Shown: positions 1 through 12,920 of the stretch, piece after piece
How positions within the stretch are numbered: position 1 is the stretch's first letter
Layout: the number at the start of each line of letters is the position of its first letter
Sequence record: SRR2962707_2752
DNA: 50,837 nucleotides
Strand: one strand, 5' to 3'
Made by a program: the position numbers and the translations under genes
The notes under the pieces: model-generated
Databases searched by the model: none
What the model saw: the letters and a program-made list of their open reading frames with translations, nothing else
What the model was told of the DNA's origin: nothing

Positions 1-1
1 C

Positions 2-223
2 ACCAAATCCGACCTGCTGATCATCAACAAGATCGACATTGCCGAACAGGTACACGCCTCCCTGGACGTAATGGAACGGGACAGCAAAAAAATGCGCGGC
101 GAACGCCCCTTCGTGTTCACCAACCTGTACGACGGGGTAGGGCTGGACACCATCATCAGCTTCATTCTGGAGCGCGGCATGCTGCCGGAAAGGCGTCCCG
201 AAAAACTGGCCGAAATGGCCTGA
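2..223 (+). CDS. ureG: Urease accessory GTPase UreG, C-terminal part (5' end outside the window)
   Basis: Manual translation [12 protein letters not shown]...[20 protein letters not shown]...GML; NKxD G4 motif and typical UreG C-terminus; followed by a HupE/UreJ gene. Confidence 0.93.
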
Positions 224-266
224 GCAAACGAACCACTACGATTACAGAACCATCAGGAGCAACACC

Positions 267-842
267 ATGAAACTGACTTCAAAACTTCTCGCCACCGCCG
301 CGCTGCTGACCGCTTCCGCCACCGCCATGGCCCACCCCGGCCACACCGAAGGCGGCTTCACCAGCGGCCTGCTACACCCCATGCTGGGCCTGGACCATCT
401 GCTGGCCATGGCCGCCATCGGCTTCTGGAGCGTGCGCCAGAGCAAACTCATGAAAAACGCCACCCCCGCCTTCGTCATCGGCGGCATGGTATTCGGCGCC
501 GCCCTGGCCTGGGGCGGCCTGACCCTGCCGGGCGTGGAAACAGGGATTACCTTCTCGGTACTGGTAGCCGGCATCCTCATCGCCACCCTGGCGAAACTGC
601 CGACGGCTGTGGGTGGCACTCTGGTTGGTGCGTTCATGCTGTTTCACGGCTTTGCGCATGGTGCGGAAATGCCCGAAGGCGCCACGCTGGCGGCTTATCT
701 GGCTGGCTTCTCCATCGCCACGCTCGCCATCACGCTGGTTGGCCGTGGGCTGGGGAGTCTGATGCTGAAGGCGGATAGCCGGTTTAGTCGGGGGGTTGGG
801 GGAGTGCTGGCTGTGGCGGGAGCTTACCTGGCCGCAGCTTGA
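267..842 (+). CDS. ureJ: HupE/UreJ family nickel transporter / urease accessory protein
   Basis: Signal peptide then AHPGH, GLLHPMLGLDHLLAM and FHGFAHGAE motifs; AGGAG SD. Confidence 0.92.
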   Translation: MKLTSKLLATAALLTASATAMAHPGHTEGGFTSGLLHPMLGLDHLLAMAAIGFWSVRQSKLMKNATPAFVIGGMVFGAALAWGGLTLPGVETGITFSVLVAGILIATLAKLPTAVGGTLVGAFMLFHGFAHGAEMPEGATLAAYLAGFSIATLAITLVGRGLGSLMLKADSRFSRGVGGVLAVAGAYLAAA

Positions 843-863
843 TTCCATAATCCCTTCAGAAAC

Positions 864-897
864 GAAAAAGCCGCCCGGGAAACCGCGCGGCTTTTTC
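864..897. terminator. Bidirectional intrinsic terminator
   Basis: GAAAAAGCCGC...GCGGCTTTTTC 11-bp inverted repeat with A/T tracts between convergent genes. Confidence 0.8.
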
Positions 898-963
898 TAT
901 ACTCCTGACCCGTCCTGAATAAGGTTTACACCTTTGGTTCCTTGTTTGGCCGGCTTCCCGGTG

Positions 964-1596
964 TTATTGCTTTTCGAAATTTGAGTTTTCCAGTCTTTGG
1001 TGTAGTGCCCACCCGTCTGTCCCTTTGGGGATCATTGCCACATTGGTGTCCAGTCCATCATGTTCAACTTCGATGATCGCCAAGTAGCCTTCGGTCAAAT
1101 TCAGCGACTCCCAAACCGGAAAGTAGGGCGCAATCTCAGCGAAATTACCAACCCGATCTGTCAGAAAACGGTACATTTCGCGAGAGGGTAAGATGAGCAC
1201 ACCTCCCACCAATTTACCTTCCAAAAGACCTACCACCATTTTGTTTAGTGCACGATGAGAGGAAGAGATATTCCCAGTTTCCCATTCAACTGCGAATACT
1301 CTACCTTCATCGCCAACTGATTTCGTTGCGTCAATTGGTCCTGGCCTCGAAGAGGAGGCGAGTTGAAGCCTAGTTTCTGAAGCCCATCCCTGCTCTTCCA
1401 AATGAAGCATGCATTCATTTTTAATTGGCTTAACGCCGTTGCCTTTTTTGGTGGGGTTAAGTGTGAAGCTTCCGGAAGCAGCAGGCCAAGAAACCTTTTG
1501 AATTGAAGAATGTATTTCGTCAAGTATTTCAGCAAGTTGAGCAGATTTTGAAAAATCGCCCCTATCGATCAGAACTGTTGTCTGTACCAATTTCAC
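964..1596 (-). CDS. Type II restriction endonuclease, BamHI family
   Basis: WPA..FTLN, NGVKPIK, GPID, VEWETGNISSSHRALNK, LTDRVGNF and IPKGTDG segments are colinear with R.BamHI. Confidence 0.9.
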   Translation of the reverse strand: MKLVQTTVLIDRGDFSKSAQLAEILDEIHSSIQKVSWPAASGSFTLNPTKKGNGVKPIKNECMLHLEEQGWASETRLQLASSSRPGPIDATKSVGDEGRVFAVEWETGNISSSHRALNKMVVGLLEGKLVGGVLILPSREMYRFLTDRVGNFAEIAPYFPVWESLNLTEGYLAIIEVEHDGLDTNVAMIPKGTDGWALHQRLENSNFEKQ

Positions 1597-1816
1597 TGGC
1601 TTTTTCCCTTACAAGTTTGATGAAAAGCTCTGGAGGGATGCCGAGTGTTTCTGAGAGCTGAAAGATGGTAGTGATAGTGGGCTTTCTAAGCCCCCGTTCA
1701 AGCAGAGAGATATAAGTTCGGTCCAAATTAGCGTCAAGCGCTAGCTGTTGCTGTGATAAGTGCTGCTTTTCGCGCTGCTCACGTAGAATTAAACTGAACG
1801 CCTGTTCTGGGCTCAC
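1562..1816 (-). CDS. R-M controller (C) protein, XRE-family HTH
   Basis: LSQQQLA...LDRTYISLLERGLRKPTI; lies just upstream of and overlaps the REase; GTG start with GGAGG SD. Confidence 0.85.
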   Translation of the reverse strand: MSPEQAFSLILREQREKQHLSQQQLALDANLDRTYISLLERGLRKPTITTIFQLSETLGIPPELFIKLVREKASEIGTDNSSDR

Positions 1817-1856
1817 ATCGACTCCTCCAATGAAGAGCCAGTATTGTGCTTGTGTG

Positions 1857-1880
1857 GACTATGGTCGACGGACTATAGTC
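1857..1880 (-). promoter_or_regulatory. C-box operator pair
   Basis: Minus strand reads GACTATAGTC-CGTC-GACCATAGTC: one perfect and one imperfect palindrome ~40 bp upstream of the C gene. Confidence 0.75.
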
Positions 1881-1931
1881 TTCATTGGGTTAAGTGCGTT
1901 AAATTTGCGAGAATACGTTTAGAGGCAGAGG

Positions 1932-3164
1932 ATGGGGTATTCCAACCAATTTTACAAAGCAGTAGGTGTTGTCCCAGAGAAGGGACGTAGTTTGACTGAG
2001 TTTGCAAAAGAAACGGGAGTGCCGAAAGCTAGACTCCGGTACTATAACGATGAAAACAAGCTGCCGACAGGTAAAGATCTTGAAGCCATTCTTGCCGCTA
2101 CTGATCAAACGGAGCTTGACCTTGCATTGAAAATGGGGAGATTGAATAGTGCCATTTTGGAAGCAATTCAGGAAAATTCAGCGGAAGTTGCTGAGCTAAT
2201 TTCTAATTATAAAACGCAGGTAAAGTCTGGGGTTACAAAAGTCGAAAAGGTGTTTGAAACGCCCCAAGGCGTATTATACCAAGGTGATTGCTATAGTCTG
2301 TTAAAGGAGCAGGAAAGCGATTCGGTAGATTTGATATTTGCTGACCCGCCTTTCAATTTAAATAAGCTTTATCCTTCAAAAATAGATGATAAGCTAAAGA
2401 CTGAAAGATATATTAAATGGTGTGAAGAGTGGATAACTGAGTGTATTCGGATTCTTAAGCCAGGTGGCTCTTTGTTCCTATGGAATCTTCCAAAATGGAA
2501 TGCGACGCTTTCCAATTTTTTAGACGGTCGATTGAAATTTAAACATTGGATTGGTGTGGATTTGAAATTTGGCTTGCCCGTAAAGGGTAAGTTATATCCA
2601 GCGCACTACTCATTGCTTTATTACGTTAAAGGAGATAAGGCTAACACATTTAAGCCAGATAGGCTTGCGATGCAGGTATGTCCTAACTGTGCGAAAGAAC
2701 TGAAAGATTATGGTGGGTATAAGAATAAGATGAATCCAGCGGGGATTAACCTATCGGACATCTGGACAGATATTCCGCCAGTTCGTCACTCTAAGTATAA
2801 AAGAAGAGAGGGTGCTAATGAATTATCAATAAAGCTTCTGGACCGAATAATAGAAATGGCTTCTGAGGAGGGGGATTTGGTGTTAGATCCGTTTGGAGGT
2901 TCTGGCACAACTTATATGGTGGCTGAGTTGAAGCGTCGAAGGTGGGTTGGCTGCGAAATTGGGCCATGCGAGGTTATTGTTGAGCGATTTGATAAGATTG
3001 ATGAGGAAAGGAAGATTCTAAATAAGTACCGCGGTGAGATTAACGCCCTTTTTCCTGAAAATGTCCGTAAAAAAAGAGAACGGCTCGGAATATGGACAAG
3101 TGAAAGCGTGAGATCCACTTCCGAAAAAGAGTTCGAATCAAAGCAAAAATCGCTCCTAGACTAA
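1932..3164 (+). CDS. Beta-class amino (probably m4C) DNA methyltransferase, M.BamHI-like, with N-terminal HTH-like extension
   Basis: Motif IV ADPPFN precedes motif I LDPFGGSGTT; divergent from C-R as in BamHI. Confidence 0.9.
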   Translation: MGYSNQFYKAVGVVPEKGRSLTEFAKETGVPKARLRYYNDENKLPTGKDLEAILAATDQTELDLALKMGRLNSAILEAIQENSAEVAELISNYKTQVKSGVTKVEKVFETPQGVLYQGDCYSLLKEQESDSVDLIFADPPFNLNKLYPSKIDDKLKTERYIKWCEEWITECIRILKPGGSLFLWNLPKWNATLSNFLDGRLKFKHWIGVDLKFGLPVKGKLYPAHYSLLYYVKGDKANTFKPDRLAMQVCPNCAKELKDYGGYKNKMNPAGINLSDIWTDIPPVRHSKYKRREGANELSIKLLDRIIEMASEEGDLVLDPFGGSGTTYMVAELKRRRWVGCEIGPCEVIVERFDKIDEERKILNKYRGEINALFPENVRKKRERLGIWTSESVRSTSEKEFESKQKSLLD

Positions 3165-3240
3165 GTATAAATAATTATCATCTGGTAAAGTTGTTTTTAT
3201 AAGATCGTGTCGGGTTGGTGCTTGTGGGATTGCAGACCTC

Positions 3241-3268
3241 CCTTGGGGCTAGAATCGTGGCCCCAAGG
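3241..3268. terminator. Stem-loop between the convergent MTase and SIR2 genes
   Basis: CCTTGGGGC-N10-GCCCCAAGG; T-tract is weak. Confidence 0.45.
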
Positions 3269-3278
3269 TGTCGGCTTT

Positions 3279-4142
3279 CTAAGGTTCCGGGTGAGTGGAT
3301 CTAAAGTCAATGACCTGTTCGGTTAGGCCTTCTAACGCGGGCTGTAGGTCTTCGAAATTTTCTCCATACTCTAACGCTTTGATGTTGTATGTGTCTTCCC
3401 AATCCTTTTGCTTTAATCGACTTTGACTATTGCTTCTAAATAACACGTAGTGCGGGACAGTGCTAGATGATGATATTTTAACATCTTCGAGTAGAAGGTT
3501 GATGTCAGGGTCGTCTAAGCTGCAACCTATAAATAAACATGTATTTGTTATAAAAAGCGATCGCAATATTTCATAGAATCTCCAGTGCTCGCGCTTCGCG
3601 ATGTGGTACTCCGACCTCGTGAAGATCATCTTGCTTTTATTGTCGATTGAACCATGTGCTTTGATGATTACTCTACAGTCGCTTCTGATTTCATCGCCCA
3701 AAGAGTTTTGGTCATAACTTATGGTGTTATATCCGGCACCGTTTTCAGTCACATAACTACAATAGGATTCATATATTTTGTCAAAATTTGTGGTTACAAT
3801 AATTCTTGGGTCTAGTGAATGAATAGCTTTGTGAACACCGCTTGCTTGAAATGCTGGGTTGTTGAAATTCTCCTGTAGTAATTGATTGTAGTCAGCTCTA
3901 TCTGAAAAGTCTCTTATGGCCTGTAATGCTAATAGGTAGTTTTTTTCGTTTATTGCTTTTTCGACTTCATTTTTTTCTTCAGGGTCAGAGATTAGATCTT
4001 TGGCGGATTGTAGGAACTCCTCCCAAGTTTTTGGACTTGTGCCCTGTTGTGTAGTTGCTGTTGCCGACACTCCAGATCCGAGGAATATTATGCAACGTTT
4101 TCTTGCAATTTCTCTTACTAAGCTTTTAGGCCACTGAATCAC
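3279..4142 (-). CDS. Stand-alone SIR2-like (SIR2_2) domain protein, putative NADase effector
   Basis: IIFLGSGVS, IIVTTNFD, IIKAHGS and LFIGCSLDDPDI motifs; GTG start overlaps the upstream TGA (GTGA). Confidence 0.88.
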   Translation of the reverse strand: MIQWPKSLVREIARKRCIIFLGSGVSATATTQQGTSPKTWEEFLQSAKDLISDPEEKNEVEKAINEKNYLLALQAIRDFSDRADYNQLLQENFNNPAFQASGVHKAIHSLDPRIIVTTNFDKIYESYCSYVTENGAGYNTISYDQNSLGDEIRSDCRVIIKAHGSIDNKSKMIFTRSEYHIAKREHWRFYEILRSLFITNTCLFIGCSLDDPDINLLLEDVKISSSSTVPHYVLFRSNSQSRLKQKDWEDTYNIKALEYGENFEDLQPALEGLTEQVIDFRSTHPEP

Positions 4143-5164
4143 TTTCCGTCACCTATGTTCTTCATAAGACGCCAACAAATTGCTTCCATTAAGTCAATGT
4201 ATGATTTGACTTGGGAATATTGACTTCCGACTAAGCCATCCGTGCTACGGAGTTCATGTATAGGTGCTTTCGCTGCTTGGGCCATTGGTATTAGGCTGTA
4301 TAAATATGGTATATGCCCAAGCTCTAATTGCTCTGCGTTTTCTTTGTTGATGAGAAACTTCATGCTCTCTTCCACTGTTTCTGGAATTTCTTGCATAATT
4401 TGCTCATAGCTTTTTACTGGACGCGCACCTTCTTTAAATTTTCTCATAACATATTGCTGTATCGAGTATCCGGCGAATCGGAAACTATTGGTTGTATCCT
4501 CTATAATATGATATTCGAACAATTTGTTAGGGTATTTTTGGCTAAAATCCTCGGCTGCTGCCACGTAGTCACTATTCCAAGCTGATATCCAGCCAGCTAT
4601 ATTGCGTATCCCTAGCAAGCTAAAAATATCACATCCAAATGGGGTGACAATATAATCTGAAGCTAATATTACTGATCGATTTAGTGCGCCTAGAGACGGC
4701 CCAACATCAAAAACCACATAGTCATACGAGTCTTTAAACTGTTGTGAAAGATGATGGCACCAATTGGTTATTCTAAATCCTCTTAATTCCCGGGCCCTAA
4801 GGTCAGACCATCCATCGCTGAGCTTATCCTCGATGATTGACATCTTTGGGTGTCCGGGTATTAAGTCGGTTCCGAACCGGTTTCCAGTGCCAAGTAGTGG
4901 TTTTATGTTCGGATTGATTCTAGGTTCGCCGTCTTCTAGAGGTTGTAGCGCAGAATAAAGAGTGTCGTATTCATTGCTTTCCTCTAGGTAGATTTTCTCT
5001 GACAGCTGGTCTGAGATGATCGCTTGGGTCGCATTGCATTGTGGGTCAGCATCAATTAACAAAACCCGTTTATCCATTTTTCGATTGAGAAATGATACGA
5101 GGTTGCAGGCTAGGGTAGTTTTTCCAACTCCCCCTTTGTTATTGAAAAATACTATAGTTTTCAA
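4139..5164 (-). CDS. ParA/Soj-like ATPase, long form (341 aa), no ParB partner
   Basis: Deviant Walker A NNKGGVGKTT, LIDADPQCNAT, YDYVVFDVGPSLG; TTG start. Confidence 0.9.
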   Translation of the reverse strand: MKTIVFFNNKGGVGKTTLACNLVSFLNRKMDKRVLLIDADPQCNATQAIISDQLSEKIYLEESNEYDTLYSALQPLEDGEPRINPNIKPLLGTGNRFGTDLIPGHPKMSIIEDKLSDGWSDLRARELRGFRITNWCHHLSQQFKDSYDYVVFDVGPSLGALNRSVILASDYIVTPFGCDIFSLLGIRNIAGWISAWNSDYVAAAEDFSQKYPNKLFEYHIIEDTTNSFRFAGYSIQQYVMRKFKEGARPVKSYEQIMQEIPETVEESMKFLINKENAEQLELGHIPYLYSLIPMAQAAKAPIHELRSTDGLVGSQYSQVKSYIDLMEAICWRLMKNIGDGK

Positions 5165-5381
5165 AAGGTCGGCTCTCTGTGGTATGGGACACGCACCTGA
5201 CTTTTAGTCTCGTATACTAAGCGCTCACAGGCAAGTCAGATTTTATTCAATGGAAAAACTATTCGGGCTTTATTTGAGTGATTCTCGGATGAGGTTGGGT
5301 AGAGTTCAGTACCACCAACACTCTCGGAGAAATAGATTTATCCATAGTTCGATCTTGGGTCTAGAAGTAGTCCAGAGGTCA

Positions 5382-5654
5382 TCATAAAAAGTGCATATCC
5401 AGCGACTTTCCCTCGATTCGTTTCAGGATTTCGTGTTCGATTTCTTCTTAGTGGAAATTGACCAGTGCCAGTTGAGTAAACTGGTACGGCTTATCCTGTA
5501 AGGTTCCCATAGTGATGGCTTTCTTCGGATTGAACGCGAAATAGGCGCCGATTTTGCCCGCGCTCACCAAGCTGGCTTCCTTTTCCCCGGCCGTCCCTGG
5601 TAATTCTGATGATACATTTGAGCTCCCTTCGGAACTCAGGATCGTGAATTGCAC
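5382..5654 (-). pseudogene. Possible gene remnant of unknown family
   Basis: Frame reads ...GKIGAYFAFNPKKAITMGTLQDKPYQFTQLALVNFH*EEIEHEILKRIEGKSLDMHFL*, protein-like on both sides of one in-frame TAA. Confidence 0.3.
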
Positions 5655-5697
5655 CGAAGTCGGGATTCAATATGTTGCTGCGAAAACGGATCTGTCC

Positions 5698-5727
5698 CGG
5701 TTTTCCGCGGTTTTCCGCGGTTTTCCG
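5698..5727. repeat. Tandem repeat (CGGTTTTCCG)x3
   Basis: Three exact 10-bp copies directly after GATCTGTCC. Confidence 0.9.
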
Positions 5728-6053
5728 GTCCCCGTATGGTCTCGGGATGGCGCGGTTCAGGATGAGATAGACGCGAGCGTCGAAGACGAAGTGTAACGGG
5801 CACGGAGCCAGCTAAGGTCAGTACAATGCCGATCTATATGGTCTTCTATTGAGTTTCGGAGCCCTATTTATCGCAGCGTTATTGCTATCGTCCGTTTTTG
5901 CATCAACTTTTCTGAGCGCCCTTGGCGCAACGGGGTTGCCTAGTTAACCCTAGGTTTCCAACACAGTTATCCACAGTTTTTGTGAGTAAAGTCTGGATCG
6001 AATTGAGCTAGCGACGGTTTGACGGATAAACGGTTAGGAGAACCGGAACAGAC

Positions 6054-6329
6054 TTATTTCCTGATGGTGTGCTCTGCACGTTCAGAAAGGTAGGTAGCGA
6101 ACTCGTCACCCGTGAAGGTTCTGGTTTTGCCAGTCTCCAGGTCCTCCTGGCCCGCATCGATGGCGGCTTTTAGGTCATTCATTTTCGTTACGTATCGGGA
6201 CTCGGCTTCTTCGACCATTCTCAGGCCGGCTCGAAGTACCTCACTCGCATTTTGATAACGGCCCGAGGCAACCAGGTGATCGACTACCTGGGATTGATGG
6301 TCCGTGAGCACTATGTTTCTCGTCGCCAT
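6054..6329 (-). CDS. ParD-family (RHH) type II antitoxin, orphan
   Basis: MATRNIVLTDHQ...LVASGRYQNASEVLRAGLR signature; no ParE ORF downstream. Confidence 0.85.
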   Translation of the reverse strand: MATRNIVLTDHQSQVVDHLVASGRYQNASEVLRAGLRMVEEAESRYVTKMNDLKAAIDAGQEDLETGKTRTFTGDEFATYLSERAEHTIRK

Positions 6330-6349
6330 GAGAGTCATCCTGTCAGCAT

Positions 6350-6374
6350 TGCATTGGCATAATATGCCAATGCA
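6350..6374. promoter_or_regulatory. Palindromic operator upstream of the antitoxin
   Basis: TGCATTGGCATA-A-TATGCCAATGCA, perfect 12-bp arms. Confidence 0.7.
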
Positions 6375-6509
6375 TGGGTTTGCTGTCTAGGGGTGGGATA
6401 ACTGTGACACCTATGGGAAAGCCGGGACAGATCTATTAATGCGGTCATTTCGGTAAGCTGGCGCGCGTTTCGAGTTGGCTGCGCGGCAGCCTTCAGAGGC
6501 AACAGGAGG

Positions 6510-7157
6510 ATGACATTGCCGTTCATGGATCTGGACAGCTGGACGCTGTCACAGAGCATCGTGGTTTTCAGCGTTTGTGCCCTGGTCATTGCAATTGCGG
6601 GCACACGCATCACACGTGTGGTCGACCAGCTCGCCGACCGGACCGGGCTGGGTGAGGCGACCGCTGGAGCCGTGCTTCTGGGGGCAGCGACGTCCCTCAG
6701 TGGTTCGGTGCTGTCGGTAACAGCAGCCTACCGGGGGCACCCGGAGTTGGCTGTGAGTAACGCTCTCGGGGGCATCGCGGTACAGACCTTTTTCCTGGCT
6801 ATTGCCGATATGGTCTATCGTCGTGCAAACCTGGAACACGCGGCGGCCTCGGCTCCGAATATGATGCAGAACGGACTGCTGATCGGGCTCCTGGCATTGC
6901 TCCTTCTGGCGCCGACATTGCCGGATGTGACCGTCTGGAACATCCATCCAGTTACCCCGATACTGCTGGGCTTCTATTTCTATGGCACCCGGCTCATACA
7001 GGGTGCCGGCGACAACCCCATGTGGTACCCCTCCGTTACCAGCGATACCCGGCAGGACGAGCCGGAGAGCGAGAGCAGCTTGCCATCATTGAGCCGTCTC
7101 TGGACCGAATTCCCGGTGCTCTACGGGCTTGGTGTGGTGCTGATGTTTGCTGGCTGA
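6510..7157 (+). pseudogene. Sodium:calcium (CaCA) antiporter with apparent in-frame internal deletion
   Basis: First alpha-repeat present (GAATSLS, LAVSNALGG); second repeat absent; SRLWTEF joins directly to a C-terminal VLYGLGVVLMF. Confidence 0.7.
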
Positions 7158-7179
7158 ATAGCAGCGTCATCCATTAGCA

Positions 7180-7573
7180 ATGAGCTATCTGAGACTCACG
7201 AACGAAAAGCATGCGAGCCAGACAGTGATCGAAACGCGCCTGCCCAAGCTGTGTCAAGGATCGCAGGCTCTATGAACGACTCGCGGGCAGGACCGGCGAA
7301 TCGGTGGAGTGGGTGGATATCACCGGCCGTGATGAGGAGTTGGAGGAACGTGGTATAGACCCGAAAGCCGCGCTTCAGGAGCTCCATGTGGAAGATGGCC
7401 AGGGCAACATCCACCGGGAACTGGATGCCTATATTCTGTTGATGTCGCGGGTCTGGCTGCTGAAACCGCTTGCCTGGCTGATTGGCTTGCCGGTAATTCG
7501 GCCAGCGCTGGCAAAGCTGTATCACAAATGGGTGAGCGAGCGGCTGGAGCGAACCGGGCGCATGCCGTTGTAA
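7180..7573 (+). pseudogene. DCC1/DUF393 thiol-disulfide oxidoreductase with disrupted N-terminus
   Basis: ACPSCVKDRRLYERLAG...VEWVDI...LHV in frame from 7238, but preceded by an in-frame TGA; MSYLR start at 7180 is in another frame and the YDG is missing. Confidence 0.7.
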
Positions 7574-7584
7574 CCGCCGGGCCC

Positions 7585-8493
7585 TTACTGCAACTGGTAT
7601 TTGACCGGCTGCAGCGGTTCGGGTGCCGGGTCGCCCAGGGCTTCGGCAACACTGATTTCATGAATGCGGCAGATGGCATCCAGCGGCAGGTCGTTGGTGT
7701 GTCGGCCAAAGGGAAACTCAAGCTGTTCAGACAGGCGATCCAGCCCGAAAAACGTGTAGGCCACGATGGCGGTGAACACCGGCGTAAACCAGCCTGCGAC
7801 GCCTACCAGACCGAACGGGAGCAGGTAGCAGAACACATACGCCGTGCGGTGAGCCAGCAGGGTGTAGGCAAAGGGCAACGGGGTGAGGGCAATGCGTTCC
7901 GAGGCCGCCTGAATGCCCGCGAGGCCATGGAGGTGCTGGTCTACGGCCGCGGTTGCTACAGAATCCAGATCGCCCGCCTTGTGGGCTTCGGCGAGTACGT
8001 CTCCGGCCCGGTGCAGCATGAAGGCGGCGGGGTTGCGTGTGCTCAGGGCCTGGTCAATGAGTTCGGGTGCCAATGACCCCGGCAGATCAGACCGTACATC
8101 TTCTCCCCGTAACTGACCGCGCAGCAGGTGAGCGTGAGCAAGGCATCGGGTCAGAAGCTCCCGGCGTCGCTCCGGGCTCAGGTAAATGGTGCCAGTCCGC
8201 GCCAGGCTGCGAAATTCGTACACCATATGCCCCCAGTGTTTTCTGGCTTCCCACCAGCGGTCGTAGGTGGCGGTGTTGCGCACGCTTAAAAAGATGGACA
8301 GGGCGATGCCCATGATCGTGAACGGCAGAAGTGTGTAGTCGACCATGCCGTCGAGGTAGTGGTGGCGCGAAACCCAGGTAACGGCGGCTGCAAACATTCC
8401 CGTAAGCAGAATGTGCGGCAGAATGTGGGGGACAACAGACCCTTTCCAGGCCAGCAACAGCCGGAGTGGGCCGGGGCGCTCGCGAACAATCAC
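7585..8493 (-). CDS. Bestrophin-family (YneE-like) ion channel
   Basis: MIVRERP, YDRWWEARKHWG, ERIALTPLPFAY, PFGRHTNDLPLD; GTG start after AGGAG. Confidence 0.9.
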   Translation of the reverse strand: MIVRERPGPLRLLLAWKGSVVPHILPHILLTGMFAAAVTWVSRHHYLDGMVDYTLLPFTIMGIALSIFLSVRNTATYDRWWEARKHWGHMVYEFRSLARTGTIYLSPERRRELLTRCLAHAHLLRGQLRGEDVRSDLPGSLAPELIDQALSTRNPAAFMLHRAGDVLAEAHKAGDLDSVATAAVDQHLHGLAGIQAASERIALTPLPFAYTLLAHRTAYVFCYLLPFGLVGVAGWFTPVFTAIVAYTFFGLDRLSEQLEFPFGRHTNDLPLDAICRIHEISVAEALGDPAPEPLQPVKYQLQ

Positions 8494-8665
8494 GGTTAAC
8501 ACTCCTGGGATGGATGATGGCCTTGCCTGAGGGTTGGCCGCTGTGATTCCTATGCCTTTTTACGGAGAACCCACTCGTTACACAAGGGGGTAAGCTTTTT
8601 TAAGCGAGGGGGTCAGCACTCTGGCCGTTGCCTGGCATTACCCTGTGGTTTCAGGGGTAACCAGA

Positions 8666-8758
8666 TTAGGCGGCGGATTTGTGGCAGCAGTCACTGTCGC
8701 AGGGTGATAGCAGGTAAGTGCTCGAAACTTCGAGAAACTGTTCGATAATCTGTGTCAT
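8666..8758 (-). CDS. Candidate 30-aa Cys-rich small protein
   Basis: MTQIIEQFLEVSSTYLLSPCDSDCCHKSAA*; GAGGGA SD 6 nt before ATG; hairpin downstream. Confidence 0.4.
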   Translation of the reverse strand: MTQIIEQFLEVSSTYLLSPCDSDCCHKSAA

Positions 8759-9048
8759 CAAGATTCCCTCTGATGGTTTATTTGAAATGCAACCTAATAG
8801 TTTGGGGCGCATTCCTATAAAAAAACTTCGGAAAACCGAAACACATGGAGACCGCTTGGCGCGGGGGCTGTAAATTCAGATTGTTTTATCGACAGTCCCA
8901 TGGCGCTTGAGCCTCTGACACCGACTTACTTTGATAGTAGCGGAAAGCGGTTGATGCGTGTTCTTGAGATGCGATTTTTCGTGCCGCTTGATTTCTCTTC
9001 TCCTGCCCTGATTATTTCTACCATCAGCCAATCAGAGGCCTGTTCATC

Positions 9049-9489
9049 ATGACTGACGTTCGACACCTGGTATGTCCCCATTGCCACAAAGTGAATCGCG
9101 TACCGGCCGACAAGTTGTCCTCCGGCGGCAATTGTGGCGCCTGCAAACAACCGCTTTGGCCGGATCAGGTTCTGGAGCTAACGGCGCAGACCTTTACTAC
9201 CCATACCGGGCGTAGCGATCTGCCCGTGTTAGTGGATTTCTGGGCCAGCTGGTGTGGCCCGTGCAAAATGATGGCGCCCCAGTTCGAGCAGGCCGCGAAG
9301 GCCTGGCGCGGGAAAGTGCGCTTTGCCAAGCTGAATACGGAACAAGCCCCCGGGCCGGCCGGTCAGTTTGCGATTCGTAGCATACCGACCCTGATTCTGT
9401 TCCAGAACGGCCGGGAGGTGGCGCGCCAGAGTGGCGCCATGAATCAGGCCCAGATCAGTCAGTGGCTGCAATCGCAGGGTATTCGCTAG
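9049..9489 (+). CDS. trxC: Thioredoxin 2 with N-terminal zinc finger
   Basis: CPHC..NRVP..CGAC plus WCGPC active site. Confidence 0.93.
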   Translation: MTDVRHLVCPHCHKVNRVPADKLSSGGNCGACKQPLWPDQVLELTAQTFTTHTGRSDLPVLVDFWASWCGPCKMMAPQFEQAAKAWRGKVRFAKLNTEQAPGPAGQFAIRSIPTLILFQNGREVARQSGAMNQAQISQWLQSQGIR

Positions 9490-9556
9490 GAAAAATCGGG
9501 CAGGAATCAGGCCGACGGTCGTCCCGGTCTTTCGGGGCTTGGTTCGGCCCGCCGGT

Positions 9557-10117
9557 TCAGCTCCATTTCAGTTTGGGCGCTTGGTAGGACTGGATGGCCG
9601 AGAGCAGTTGCGCTTCGTTATCCGTGTGGATAATCATCTCGGCATGGTGCGGTTTCAGGAAGCCGGAATCGGTCATGTTCGAGATCATCTCGAACAATTT
9701 ATCGTAGAAACCATTGACGTTGTAAAAGGCGCAGGGTTTTGCGTGATAGCCGAGTTGAGCCCAGGTCCAGGCTTCGAAGATTTCTTCCAGGGTACCGACG
9801 CCGCCGGGCAGAGCCACAAAGGCATCGGCCATTCGGGCCATGGTGGCTTTTCTTTCGTGCATATCAGCAACAATTTTCAGCTTGGTGAGGCCTTGATGGG
9901 CCAGCTCCCGGTCTTTCAGGTACTCGGGAATCACTCCGTACACTTGAGCGCCCTTTTCCAGAAAGGCGTCTGCGACCACGCCCATCAGGCCGACGTTGCC
10001 ACCGCCGTACACCAGATCCACTCCGTTCATTGCCAGGTAGTGCCCCAGAGCACGGGTTGCCTGGGCGAATTCCGGGTTTTCACCAATGCTTGAACCACAA
10101 AATACGGCAATTCTCAT
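9557..10117 (-). CDS. LOG family (TIGR00730) nucleotide phosphoribohydrolase
   Basis: VFCGSS, LVYGGG.VGLMG, MHERK, PGGVGTLEE. Confidence 0.93.
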   Translation of the reverse strand: MRIAVFCGSSIGENPEFAQATRALGHYLAMNGVDLVYGGGNVGLMGVVADAFLEKGAQVYGVIPEYLKDRELAHQGLTKLKIVADMHERKATMARMADAFVALPGGVGTLEEIFEAWTWAQLGYHAKPCAFYNVNGFYDKLFEMISNMTDSGFLKPHHAEMIIHTDNEAQLLSAIQSYQAPKLKWS

Positions 10118-10453
10118 GGGTCTTACGAGGCTCCATCGATTCGGTTCAGAGGGGTGAGTGAGTTCTTCACTCTGTTGTGGTTGGTCCGGGCGTCTTTAGG
10201 TGCCGGAGCCTAATAGAATGCCGCCTCCGGTCTGCCCAGTCTAGCCGTTGATCGTGCATCCGAACCCGGAAGCCAGTTGTTAAGGCTTCGTAACCTGTTG
10301 AAGTATAAATAAAATGTAAGAGGTGGCGTCTCGTGTGATTCTGTTATTCTCGAATGGTTCAAAACTGACAGGTGCCCGGTGGGGCGCTGAGAACAGGCTC
10401 TCCCACCCGCGATACAGGACAAGTCAGACCACCTGAACCATGGGATTTACATC

Positions 10454-10783
10454 ATGAATATGAAATCACTGCTCGTTTTTCTGTCTCTGAGTGCCACCTC
10501 GTTGAGTGCCGTTGCGGGTGATACCGCCGACGCCGCGCTGGGTGGAGGTATTGGCGGCGCACTGGGGGCCGCCATTGGCAACGAGGTGGGTGGCAGAGAC
10601 GGAGCGATTCTTGGCGGTGCTGTCGGTGCGGCAGCGGGAACGGCCGTGACCACCCGGGACCAACGGGACCACGATCGCGATTATGATTATGATCGCCGCC
10701 GGTATGACGATGATCGCGGGTCTTACCGGAAGTCTCGTGGCCATTTCTGCCCACCAGGCCAGGCGAAGAAGGGTAACTGCTGA
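10454..10783 (+). CDS. Secreted glycine-zipper protein
   Basis: Signal peptide, GGALGAAIG/GGAVGAAAG zipper, Asp/Arg/Tyr-rich linker, FCPPGQAKKGNC tail. Confidence 0.8.
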   Translation: MNMKSLLVFLSLSATSLSAVAGDTADAALGGGIGGALGAAIGNEVGGRDGAILGGAVGAAAGTAVTTRDQRDHDRDYDYDRRRYDDDRGSYRKSRGHFCPPGQAKKGNC

Positions 10784-10831
10784 GACGCTTGTGTTGCTGA
10801 GGAAATGTAACGCGTCTGCACTGGGGCGGGC

Positions 10832-11398
10832 ATGATTCGTATAACCGCATGGGTATTGATGCTTGGCCTTTTGTCCGGGTGCCAGATGTACCGGAAGTCG
10901 AACGATCCGATACACCGGGCGCCACCCCCTGGCGCGACAACCGGGCAACTCACTCCGTTCAGCATGATGACCACGACGTTTCAGCGGGACCGGTACCGGC
11001 TTTTTCTGGCCGGGGGTGGTGAGAGTGTTAGAGACGGAGTGGAGCAAGCTTCGCTCTTCACCCTGACCTCGCTGCAGGCCAGTGCGCCGGAGGTGCCGGA
11101 TCCCGAAGGCGAACTGGTGGTTTTTGAGAGCGTGACGTACGAGCCGTTGTCGGATAACGACGTTACCGGCACCTGGTCATTTGACCAGCCGGCATGCCGG
11201 ATCCGATTACGGACGGCGGAGGGGCGCAATTTCGCGACACTGGAGGGGAAGCCTGTTTCTGTCACCATACACTCAGGAATACCCGCCCAGGCGCCGGTTC
11301 TGCAGTCCACGACCGGTTTTACGGTCACCGAGTCCAGGGTTCCGGAGCTGGAAGGCCGTGTGTTTTTCGATTTGTCCCGTCACTGGCCGTGTCCCTGA
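10832..11398 (+). CDS. Hypothetical lipoprotein
   Basis: Lipobox LLSGC after a hydrophobic stretch. Confidence 0.6.
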   Translation: MIRITAWVLMLGLLSGCQMYRKSNDPIHRAPPPGATTGQLTPFSMMTTTFQRDRYRLFLAGGGESVRDGVEQASLFTLTSLQASAPEVPDPEGELVVFESVTYEPLSDNDVTGTWSFDQPACRIRLRTAEGRNFATLEGKPVSVTIHSGIPAQAPVLQSTTGFTVTESRVPELEGRVFFDLSRHWPCP

Positions 11399-11467
11399 TT
11401 CGGGACGCTGGAGGCTCTGGCTGCTGACTATGCTTTAGATGAAGCGGGTTAGTGACTCTCTGCATCG

Positions 11468-12649
11468 TCAATCCATCCAGTTCCAGGGGGGCGCGTCCAG
11501 AAGCCCCTGGCCAAGAATGCGGGTTTCACCCAGCTCTTTGTTCAGTGCAATGGAATGGCAATCGTTGTCTGCTTCCAGAGCGGCTACCAGTCGAGGGGCA
11601 TGGGAAACAACCCACACCTGGGTTTCCCGCGAGGCGCGAATGATCAGTCGGCCGAGGGCCGGAAGCAAGTCGGGATGCAGGCTTGTTTCTGGTTCGTTCA
11701 GCACCAGTAGTGATGGCGGGCGGGGTGTGAGCAGCGCGGCAACCAACAGCAGGTAGCGAAGGGTGCCATCAGAAAGCTCGGCCTGATTCAGGGGGCGGAG
11801 CAGGCCGGCCTGCTCAAATTCCAGGACGAAACGGTTGCCTGCGTCTGTGCTGAACCCGAGCCTCGCTCCGGGAAAGGCATCTTCAATAGCGCTGTGCAGG
11901 CCGTCCCGGTCGCCGATTTCGTGAATGGTGCGCAGGGCTGCAACCAGGTTGTGGCCATTGTGGTCCAGCACCGGTGTACGGGTTCCGATTTGCGGGGTGC
12001 GGATGCTGGAGTGTTGATCGGTGCGGAACTGATCGTAAAAGCGCCACTGCCTGATGGCCTGCCGGACGGCATGGACTTCAGGTACAGCCACAGGATCACT
12101 GATCTCGCTCAGAATGCTCTCATAGGTGTTTAGCCGGGTGTCGTAGACCTCCCATTTCCGCCCTGAACGTACTTTGACAACCGGCCCGACGCGATCAATC
12201 AGACAACTGCTTGGGCGGCAGACATCACCCACCCAGATACATTCGCGTTTTATTTCAGGGTCGAGCTGGAACATGCTGGGTTCCTGATAACCTGCAAACC
12301 CCGTAGAGGCCGGAATCCCAAGAGAAATCGCGTAGCCGAATTCTTCGCCGGCAAACCCCAGCCGTAGGCGGGATGGGGTGTTCCCGGCGGTCCCCTGAAC
12401 GGGCGCTGAGCCGTCCCGCATCTCCCTTGAGAACTGGCCGGGCCCTGCCCAGAAGGTGTAGTCCAGGCCGCCTTCTTCCGCCAGGGAGGAAATCAGGTTG
12501 CCTTTTGCCGTTTCCGCCAGCAGGCGCAACGATTTATAGAGGTTTGATTTGCCACAGCCGTTTGGACCGGTAACAACGTTCAGGCCCGCCAGCGGCGCGA
12601 CCACGTCTCTGAGGCTGCGATAGTTGGAAACGGCAAAGGCTTTGATCAT
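11468..12649 (-). CDS. ABC/SMC-type AAA ATPase (AAA_21, COG4637-like)
   Basis: SNYRSL, GPNGCGKSN Walker A, LSDGT signature, LLVLNEPETSLHP, VVSH; start taken at MIKAF. Confidence 0.88.
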   Translation of the reverse strand: MIKAFAVSNYRSLRDVVAPLAGLNVVTGPNGCGKSNLYKSLRLLAETAKGNLISSLAEEGGLDYTFWAGPGQFSREMRDGSAPVQGTAGNTPSRLRLGFAGEEFGYAISLGIPASTGFAGYQEPSMFQLDPEIKRECIWVGDVCRPSSCLIDRVGPVVKVRSGRKWEVYDTRLNTYESILSEISDPVAVPEVHAVRQAIRQWRFYDQFRTDQHSSIRTPQIGTRTPVLDHNGHNLVAALRTIHEIGDRDGLHSAIEDAFPGARLGFSTDAGNRFVLEFEQAGLLRPLNQAELSDGTLRYLLLVAALLTPRPPSLLVLNEPETSLHPDLLPALGRLIIRASRETQVWVVSHAPRLVAALEADNDCHSIALNKELGETRILGQGLLDAPPWNWMD

Positions 12650-12920
12650 GATCCGGGTCGAACCTGTTTCTTGAAGAAGGTTGGAGGTGCGCCTGCAACG
12701 AGCAGGAGAGGGCCAATGAGTCTGGATTTTCCCATGGATGCTTCTCTTTGCCATAAGTGATCTTGTTTCGCGAAGAGAATATCATTTTGTGATCCCACAG
12801 TTTGAGCTAGGTTGCTCAAAGGGATCCGGGAGGCTGCATGACCGGAGAACACTCTGTTCTAGGCCGCCCAATTGAACGCTTTCTGATACACTCAGAATCT
12901 AAACAGTCCAGGCGAGAACC

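Follow-up and report, generated by a model that had tools for sequence, protein, structure and literature searches.

SIR2 NADases, enzymes that consume nicotinamide adenine dinucleotide (NAD+), are among the most common suicide effectors in bacterial immunity, and to our knowledge the known kinds differ in the partner that gates them, namely a SLOG domain, HerA, Argonaute, a STAND module or KomB. Here we analyze a two-gene locus in which a SIR2 protein is coupled to a ParA-like ATPase; the locus is located in a 50,837-nucleotide (nt) stretch of DNA from the sequence record SRR2962707_2752 (hereinafter, the window). The closest described counterpart comes from a preprint of Li, Burroughs and Aravind (bioRxiv 10.64898/2026.10.19.760177, 22 Oct 2026), the main text of which delineates 'ParA-effector systems' within a conflict branch denoted ConB1; in these systems, ParA is coupled to one variable effector. 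The effectors listed there include (ii) a sirtuin and (iii) a fusion of a histidine kinase with Schlafen, and the PriB1/ConB1 ATPases are marked by an Asn that opens the Walker A motif, a Val within Walker A and a Gln two residues past the DxD motif. In the model put forward in that text, the C-terminal extensions of ParA intercept invader DNA, and the effector is released once this interception is overcome. As presented there, the class is a computational prediction on which no experiment is reported, and the prediction made for ParA together with a sirtuin is the same immune function that we discuss below.

The ParA of the window shows all of these marks: N9, V13, D38, D40 and Q42 match and are invariant in 35 homologs. 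The likeness extends to the two-gene coupling of ParA with a sirtuin and to the Schlafen effector, which we found independently in a sister clade. The ParA-sirtuin class has been described in the main text of the preprint, in silico only, so the class is not new and the novelty of the present pair is reduced. A first-pass annotation, made from the sequence alone, had proposed that the pair is an uncharacterized anti-phage system and had suggested a PADLOC search. The proposal stands with respect to experiment and to PADLOC, given that full-text literature searches found no experiments on any member of the ParA-SIR2 family and that no system listed in PADLOC-DB 2.0.0 has models matching both proteins (ParA matches only PDC-M28B, at 9.1e-4 and over the P-loop stretch); it does not stand with respect to computational description (10.64898/2026.10.19.760177).

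On balance, we consider it fairly probable that the pair is an NAD-depleting abortive-infection module, directed against phages or other mobile elements, that belongs to the sirtuin type of ParA-effector systems and is gated by a DNA-binding ATP switch.

The ParA gene precedes the SIR2 gene on the same strand (Table 1), and the two share the GTGA at positions 4139-4142, with the SIR2 start inside the ParA stop (sequence GGAAAGTGATTC). The first-pass annotation had described two genes coupled through this stop/start overlap, an AT-rich setting, a tail-to-tail arrangement with a restriction-modification (R-M) system, an ATPase with an intact deviant Walker A motif, a SIR2 protein that keeps the Asn of TTNFD and the His of KAHG and has no room for a sensor domain, and the lack of a parB neighbor, and it was right at every point checked. 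The methylase gene of the R-M system is convergent with the SIR2 gene; the G+C content is 0.38-0.48 over positions 1001-5500, compared to 0.60 at 1-1000 and 0.52-0.63 over 5501-8500, and amounts to 40-42% in the island that contains both genes against 58-60% in its flanks; the ATPase motif reads NNKGGVGKTT in a protein approximately 90 amino acids (aa) longer than Soj; both SIR2 residues are present and invariant among the homologs; a single SIR2 domain fills the model of the 287-aa protein; and no ParB-family match was found in a Pfam scan of 14 window open reading frames (ORFs) between positions 1 and 12754. The Pfam matches of the two proteins are AAA_31 (1.8e-31) and CbiA (2e-15) for ParA and SIR2_2 (6.8e-25) for its partner, whereas the NCBIfam matches are all below threshold, with 65 bits for ParA_partition against a cut-off of 180 and, for the SIR2 part only of Dsr2, 33 bits against a cut-off of 1400. 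The automatically assigned database names of these proteins are misleading: an identical SIR2 protein is recorded as 'DNA segregation ATPase FtsK/SpoIIIE-like protein', the ATPase as 'cellulose biosynthesis protein BcsQ' and one homolog as 'helicase DnaB' (P0005, P0125 and P0129 are among these records).

The pair is a conserved, translationally coupled unit that is inherited together. Of the related loci, which come from genomes, plasmids, prophages and metagenomes, 93 extend far enough upstream to be judged, and in 92 of these a ParA gene lies directly upstream of the SIR2 homolog; the linkage that the first-pass annotation had proposed to examine in homologous pairs is thus borne out; because the pair recurs in nearly every related locus examined, the pairing is not due to chance. 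Among 401 genomes of the phylum, 8 encode a SIR2 homolog (E<=1e-20), and 7 of the 8 loci have a same-strand ParA gene immediately upstream. The pair is further present in all 3 plasmid loci inspected, all 6 IMG/VR loci and 76 of 80 metagenome loci, the remaining 4 having at most 269 nt of upstream sequence, which is too little for a judgment. Across 10 loci, pairs that are more alike in ParA are also more alike in SIR2 (r=0.95 for the pairwise identities, Mantel p ~0.0002), and the 4-nt gene overlap is seen again in six loci (L011, L013, L014, L039, L040 and L041). Word-indexed protein searches returned 526 relatives of SIR2, the best 120 of which are 280-293 aa long and 48-61% identical to the query, and more than 6000 relatives of ParA, with 56-69% identity for the best 120. 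Many members of the two sets are encoded on contigs of equal length, and PUND_a3123 and PUND_a3124, which have adjacent locus tags, are an example of linked relatives. The family amounts to approximately 410 clusters at 50% identity and spans several phyla. Searches of narrower design yielded less: a Salmonella-type pair had no match in E. coli complete genomes (distant mode), a contig scan with a single ParA sequence returned only one distant, irrelevant locus (L001), and ParA had one partial match in a phage collection, to an unannotated 6.8-kb record.

There is no conserved third gene, and the immediate neighbors vary in size, strand and family. The gaps 5' of ParA are mostly 67-590 nt long, and because of this the pair appears to own its promoter. 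Directly 5' of ParA we observed, at one locus, a gene for a nucleotide-modification-associated Nmad2 protein (L042:8108-8698, + strand) and, at another, a gene for a methyl-directed endonuclease of the Mrr type that carries a Top1 zinc ribbon (L047:11009-11863, - strand); both neighbors are related to DNA modification.

Judging by its motifs, ParA is a catalytically intact, dimerizing-type deviant-Walker ATPase, and the subfamily to which it belongs is a distinct one whose effectors are exchangeable. Its Walker A motif contains the signature Lys10 and Lys15, the DxD-P-Q motif is D38-A-D40-P-Q42, and Walker B is VVFDVGP (D153); 35 ParA sequences agree without exception in FNNKGGVGKTT, DxDPQCN and D153-x-GPSLG, as well as in many C-terminal positions. 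The additional length relative to Soj comes from insertions at approximately 50-100 and 180-280 and from a C-terminal helix. Structures of Soj/ParA proteins match only the N-terminal core (~1e-18), and the sole full-length match in PDB is 3pg5 (profile E 4.2e-90, residues 1-337 against 1-348), which aligns with the ParA model (mean predicted local distance difference test score, pLDDT, 92.4) at a template modeling score of 0.74-0.86 and ~30% identity. This structure is that of DIP2308 from Corynebacterium diphtheriae, a structural-genomics 'uncharacterized protein' that shares the insertions and the C-terminal extension with the ParA of the window.

The full-length ParA subfamily occurs in 29 places in 28 of the 401 genomes, and SIR2 lies downstream at 7 of these places. 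At 15 of the remaining 22, an upstream ORF overlaps the start of ParA, and the C-termini of these ORFs are alike; all 5 that were scanned contain HATPase_c_4, and 4 of the 5 also contain SLFN_AlbA_2. The partner in the sister clade is a protein of ~400 aa with SLFN_AlbA_2 and HATPase_c_4 domains (L016, L020-L023, L025, L029, L030 and others). Such an arrangement, with a single switch serving interchangeable enzymatic partners, is typical of conflict systems. The Schlafen/HATPase gene matches the 'Histidine kinase-Schlafen' type of ParA-effector system in the preprint's main text (10.64898/2026.10.19.760177).

On the evidence of its residues and predicted fold, the SIR2 protein is a single-domain enzyme of the ThsA/DSR2/KomC/Avs5 class of NADases with the catalytic Asn and His intact, and its NADase activity is predicted from these relatives. 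The GxG motif (G22, G24), Asn119 and Asp121 in TTNFD, and His163 in KAHG are readily located, and all 36 SIR2 sequences compared share G22, G24, N119, D121, H163 and G164; in a profile alignment, TTNFD and KAHG align with TTNYD and KLHGD of SeThsA. No zinc-binding CxxC module is present in the 287-aa protein. The AlphaFold model (pLDDT 91.1) has its best fold matches in ThsA (7uxt, E 1.3e-14), DSR2, KomC in the KomBC helix, the FAM118B filament and the Avs5 helix, all NAD-processing sirtuins of immune or immune-like type (FAM118B is human), several of which, according to the titles of the entries, are active as filaments. In PADLOC, only the SIR2 parts of ThsA, LmuA-Sir2, Dsr2, Avs5 and PDC-S25 are matched.

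Under the abortive-infection reading, ParA would act as an ATP-driven switch that, like other ParA proteins, would bind DNA as an ATP dimer. Infection would change the state of the DNA and thereby alter the ParA assembly, the candidate cues being DNA that is foreign or unmodified, the loss of the nucleoid, or a restriction system that is blocked or overwhelmed. The change in ParA would turn SIR2 on, probably via oligomerization of SIR2 that is templated or permitted by ParA, a route proposed because the closest structural relatives are active as filaments. SIR2 would then consume NAD+, and the infected cell would halt growth before the phage completes its cycle.

Several observations weigh against this reading or parts of it. 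The mean pairwise column identity of ParA is higher than that of SIR2 (0.56 against 0.49), which weakens the suggestion of the first-pass annotation that ParA might read a phage protein; given this high conservation, ParA more plausibly responds to something invariant, for example DNA, a nucleotide or a host complex that is itself conserved, than to a fast-evolving phage protein. The variability of ParA is confined to patches (201-220, 261-280 and 321-341), whereas C-terminal extensions that evolve rapidly are proposed in the preprint's main text (10.64898/2026.10.19.760177). At one locus (L049, genome G284), the SIR2 homolog has no ParA within 9 kb. A weak search for ParA-SIR2 fusions among longer proteins found none and returned only SIR2+CHAT and NB-ARC/TPR proteins with 23-29% identity. 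The SIR2 fold also accommodates ADP-ribosyltransferases and deacylases, and the dearth of experiments on the family mentioned above counts here as well. Finally, the 63 proteins encoded next to the pair at the 7 genome loci are mostly housekeeping ones; the few of defense type are a type III endonuclease, Mrr, Nmad2 and one methylase. The placement in defense islands that had been suggested for homologous pairs is accordingly seen in these few neighbors and not in the majority, and we do not claim enrichment because no control set was run. Prediction of the ParA+SIR2 complex, in which alignments were not used, gave a score of 0.00, which speaks neither for nor against binding.

The clade to which the window belongs (SIR2 identity to the window of at least 47%) is recurrently linked to BamHI-family R-M systems, a linkage absent from the main text of the preprint, in which 'methyltransferase' has 0 occurrences and association with R-M is given for other ParA lineages only (10.64898/2026.10.19.760177). 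In the window, the methylase gene is divergent from the endonuclease gene, and the small ORF 5' of the latter probably encodes the controller (C) protein of the system, as suggested by its sequence matches (Table 1); the ParA-SIR2 pair is packaged with this system, probably as a layered defense cassette. By tblastn, a methylase 48-61% identical to that of the window adjoins the pair in L050, L068, L070, L073, L076, L080, L083, L085 and L092, and L072 has a partial methylase at the contig end, below the 150-residue cut of the tally. A BamHI-family endonuclease is encoded beside the pair in five loci (L072, L073, L083, L085 and L092), and the pair and the R-M genes occur in no fewer than five different orders. 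The methylase gene follows SIR2 on the same strand in L073 and L085, with gaps of 12 and 34 nt, and the endonuclease gene is convergent there; in L073, a small ORF lies ahead of the endonuclease gene. A window-type (P0003-like) methylase is present in 8 of the 21 distinct loci of the clade, in addition to the partial one of L072, and in 5 of the 9 clade loci with at least 3 kb of flank, compared to 1 of 10 distinct loci with a SIR2 identity of 40-47% and 1 of 56 below 40%.

These associations lend some weight to a rival explanation, namely that the pair is an accessory of R-M: either it stands guard over the R-M system, firing once restriction is inhibited or overrun, or it uses the mark of the methylase to distinguish self from foreign DNA. 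In the strictest form of this explanation, which we find doubtful, the pair would be the abortive arm of a methylation-linked cassette rather than autonomous, with the DNA-binding ParA sensing a state that the adjacent methylase and endonuclease establish or protect and firing SIR2 upon failure of restriction; the state in question might be that of incoming DNA lacking methylation, breaks left by restriction, or the occupation of the DNA-binding face of ParA by an anti-restriction protein that mimics DNA. Besides the frequency of the linkage in the clade, the variety of gene orders and the closely spaced same-strand methylases, this explanation draws on L092, where a distant pair (~40% identity) is combined with a close R-M system (57-59%), and on L065 and L066, which lack such a methylase and have a different putative endonuclease instead (ESM Atlas score 0.99, a lead only). 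The methylase identities track those of ParA and SIR2 in part (r=0.48 and 0.64). Outside the clade, an unrelated methylase family is encoded 10 nt upstream of ParA in four enteric loci, and a 665-aa protein (P0265) joins a SIR2 of the window's family (E 3.4e-87) to this enteric methylase family (41% identity over 354 residues, E 6e-83). The varied BamHI-family linkage, the operonic placement of the enteric methylase and the SIR2-methylase fusion would be traces of the strictest form.

Against this explanation, the loci within the clade are related, and the methylase counts are not independent; R-M is the commonest neighbor of any defense gene, and a control for methylase adjacency is absent. 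Most loci have no adjacent methylase: among the 82 immediate neighbors at distinct metagenome loci, 73 are not methylases; the rest are 7 N6_N4 methylases and 2 D12 methylases. One MjaI endonuclease was found among the 82, and 5 metagenome-locus neighbors match the PADLOC model of the window methylase. The P0003-like methylase occurs in just 2 of 66 loci outside the close clade, and BamHI-type R-M in none of the 7 genome loci. The enteric methylase is in a lambdoid prophage, where orphan methylases are common (nin regions), and P0265 could be an artefact of gene calling, read-through or a frameshift. The idea of the first-pass annotation that the pair forms a second line behind the R-M system gains some support from the recurrent linkage to R-M and methylases. 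Overall, we regard the R-M accessory explanation as unlikely; the R-M-wired form, which we likewise think improbable, is a special case of the defense-module reading.

Table 1. Coordinates in the window, strand and supporting details of the ParA-SIR2 pair and the adjacent features
ParA/MinD-type (SIMIBI) ATPase	4139..5164	-	341 aa, TTG start, begins LKTIVFFNNKGGVGKTT
SIR2_2 protein, stand-alone	3279..4142	-	287 aa, GTG start; predicted NAD+-consuming effector
Inverted repeat	3241..3268		G+C-rich stem of 9 bp with a 10-nt loop, within the 114 nt that separate the SIR2 and methylase genes
N4/N6 DNA methyltransferase, type II R-M	1932..3164	+	Pfam N6_N4_Mtase 1e-41; PADLOC MTase_II PDLC03238 1.4e-141
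Helix-turn-helix ORF, 84 aa, 5' of the endonuclease gene	1562..1816	-	C.AhdI 8.4e-7, C.BclI 1.1e-6, C.Esp1396I-type
BamHI-family endonuclease	964..1596	-	Pfam BamHI 4.6e-70; PADLOC REase_II 3e-72
Low-GC accessory island	900..6450		R-M system, ParA-SIR2 and ~1.3 kb of mostly non-coding DNA; boundaries approximate

The module belongs to the accessory, mobile part of the genome and is found at variable chromosomal sites, on plasmids and in prophages. The island of the window is inserted between hupE/ureJ and the gene for a Na/Ca-exchanger, at a site that varies on the chromosome. The nearest genome examined (G001) aligns with positions 1-845 of the window and from 6451 onward, with ~12 kb of other low-GC DNA in between (L064, G001:C2:412400-425900); this cargo includes a gene for an 804-aa AAA_13 ATPase that is the PADLOC candidate defense gene PDC-S06 (E=0), along with genes for two NYN+OST-HTH proteins, an RDD protein and several ORFs that match no family. 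None of the 4 same-genus genomes has either the ParA or the SIR2 gene. Because G001 holds other cargo and all 4 same-genus genomes lack the pair, the site is a variable cargo slot. Elsewhere, the pair is found on a Vibrio plasmid with a ParA/ParB and Rep of its own, on a Spirosoma plasmid beside a helicase and an ATPase, in a lambdoid prophage, and adjoining a P4-type integrase.

Such mobility would also be expected of an addiction module of the toxin-antitoxin kind, in which SIR2 would be the toxin, ParA the neutralizer, and the role of the pair the stabilization of the carrier DNA through the death of cells from which it is lost, with no sensing of phages. The location on plasmids, in prophages and on integrative islands, the tight translational coupling, the frequent occurrence next to R-M systems, themselves known to work as addiction modules, and a ParD-like antitoxin ORF at the edge of the island are all compatible with this explanation. 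However, a 341-aa ATPase with intact, invariant motifs far exceeds what an antitoxin needs, the ParA subfamily also works with another effector, whose gene is placed upstream and not downstream, and the characterized relatives of this type of SIR2 all act in phage defense. We therefore regard an addiction module as quite unlikely; were the pair nothing else, it would be of modest interest.

A housekeeping or regulatory pair, in which SIR2 would act as a deacylase or ADP-ribosyltransferase on ParA or on cargo positioned by ParA, outside any conflict, would agree with the chemistry of the sirtuin fold in other families and with the positioning of cellular cargo by most ParA ATPases, but is highly improbable considering the patchy distribution (8 of 401 genomes), the low-GC island missing from the same-genus genomes, the lack of the zinc-binding module, the nearest relatives in sequence and fold, which are defense NADases and not deacetylases, and the lack of a conserved third gene that could be the cargo.

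In a DNA run, the whole island is found on one 5162-nt contig, which spans positions 764-5813 of the window. In one RNA library, contigs cover parts of the endonuclease, C-protein, SIR2 and ParA genes (with 0 mismatches for the endonuclease, SIR2 and ParA) and none of the methylase gene, a weak hint of SIR2 and ParA expression that could also reflect DNA carry-over; no conclusion follows from the part left uncovered. The inverted repeat between the SIR2 and methylase genes is possibly a two-way transcription stop; the consensus terminator scan missed it because no T run follows. Otherwise, an Rfam scan of positions 1-12000 and promoter and terminator scans of 3000-6200 yielded nothing above chance, including the ~890 nt 5' of ParA.

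The stretch of ~1.3 kb that separates ParA from the conserved flank (5165-6450) is mostly non-coding; it contains a tandem GGAAAACCGC near 5700-5730 and an 18-nt inverted repeat (5689-5706 / 6416-6433) that encloses a ParD-antitoxin-like ORF (6054-6338), and two segments (5405-5662 and 5806-5995) are 68-85% identical to several other sites in G001; this region may represent a repeated or mobile element of small size that marks the island edge. Farther along, at 11468-12754 (- strand), the window encodes a 428-aa ABC-type ATPase (AAA_21/AAA_15) with a best PADLOC match to HEC-01A (1.4e-46), followed by AriA, mad3 and AbiLi, which may be a second candidate defense gene, ~6 kb from the pair; the ORFs next to it, at 10466-11047 (- strand) and 10832-11398 (+ strand), have no PADLOC match. 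The LOG/SLOG-cluster4 ('lysine decarboxylase-like') protein encoded in the conserved flank (9557-10117, - strand) is probably a housekeeping enzyme of the cytokinin-riboside-phosphoribohydrolase type, unrelated to the pair despite its SLOG fold.

Thoeris, SIR2-HerA, DSR, Kongming and partition by ParABS were each considered as the identity of the pair and rejected. ThsA of Thoeris is the top match of the SIR2 protein in PADLOC, among PDB sequences and by fold, and the catalytic Asn and His are equivalent; however, the ThsA profile is matched only at 11-236 of 478 positions by a protein of 287 aa that has no SLOG domain, no TIR family (ThsB) was detected among the 14 window ORFs scanned, and the conserved partner is ParA. 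SIR2-HerA (Nezha) likewise combines a small SIR2 NADase with a gating P-loop ATPase in a two-gene operon; here, the ATPase is of the ParA/MinD (SIMIBI) dimer type with the Soj/ParA fold rather than a hexamer of the HerA/FtsK type, and the PADLOC models of HerA are not matched. DSR1 and DSR2 are single proteins of ~1000 aa or larger with a C-terminal sensor region, in contrast to the stand-alone SIR2 of the window. In Kongming, KomC is a stand-alone, partner-dependent SIR2 protein of ~265-280 aa that is among the top fold and sequence matches and is activated in a helical complex with KomB, but the partner in the window is ParA-like, and no komA or komB genes are present beside the pair. As for partition by ParABS, the Pfam scan detected no ParB among the same 14 ORFs (parS was not searched), the ParA_partition match is below the cut-off, and plasmid pVPon1 carries the pair alongside a separate ParA/ParB and Rep, so the pair is not a partition system.

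If the abortive-infection reading is correct, a gate of the ParA type would add the best-studied bacterial DNA-positioning switch to the partners that gate SIR2 enzymes and would offer a tractable two-protein system for analyzing how the state of DNA becomes a signal for NAD depletion. The linkage to R-M and methylases is a concrete, testable addition to the described class, and its nearest parallel is PrrC, the anticodon nuclease that the EcoprrI R-M system keeps latent and that fires when a phage inhibits restriction. PrrC-EcoprrI differs in that the R-M system is of type I, the effector is an RNase, and there is no sequence relationship, but as an abortive-infection effector embedded in an R-M cassette it could serve as a model for the guarding of R-M by the pair, and the linkage, if functional, would be a type II R-M counterpart of the same guard principle.

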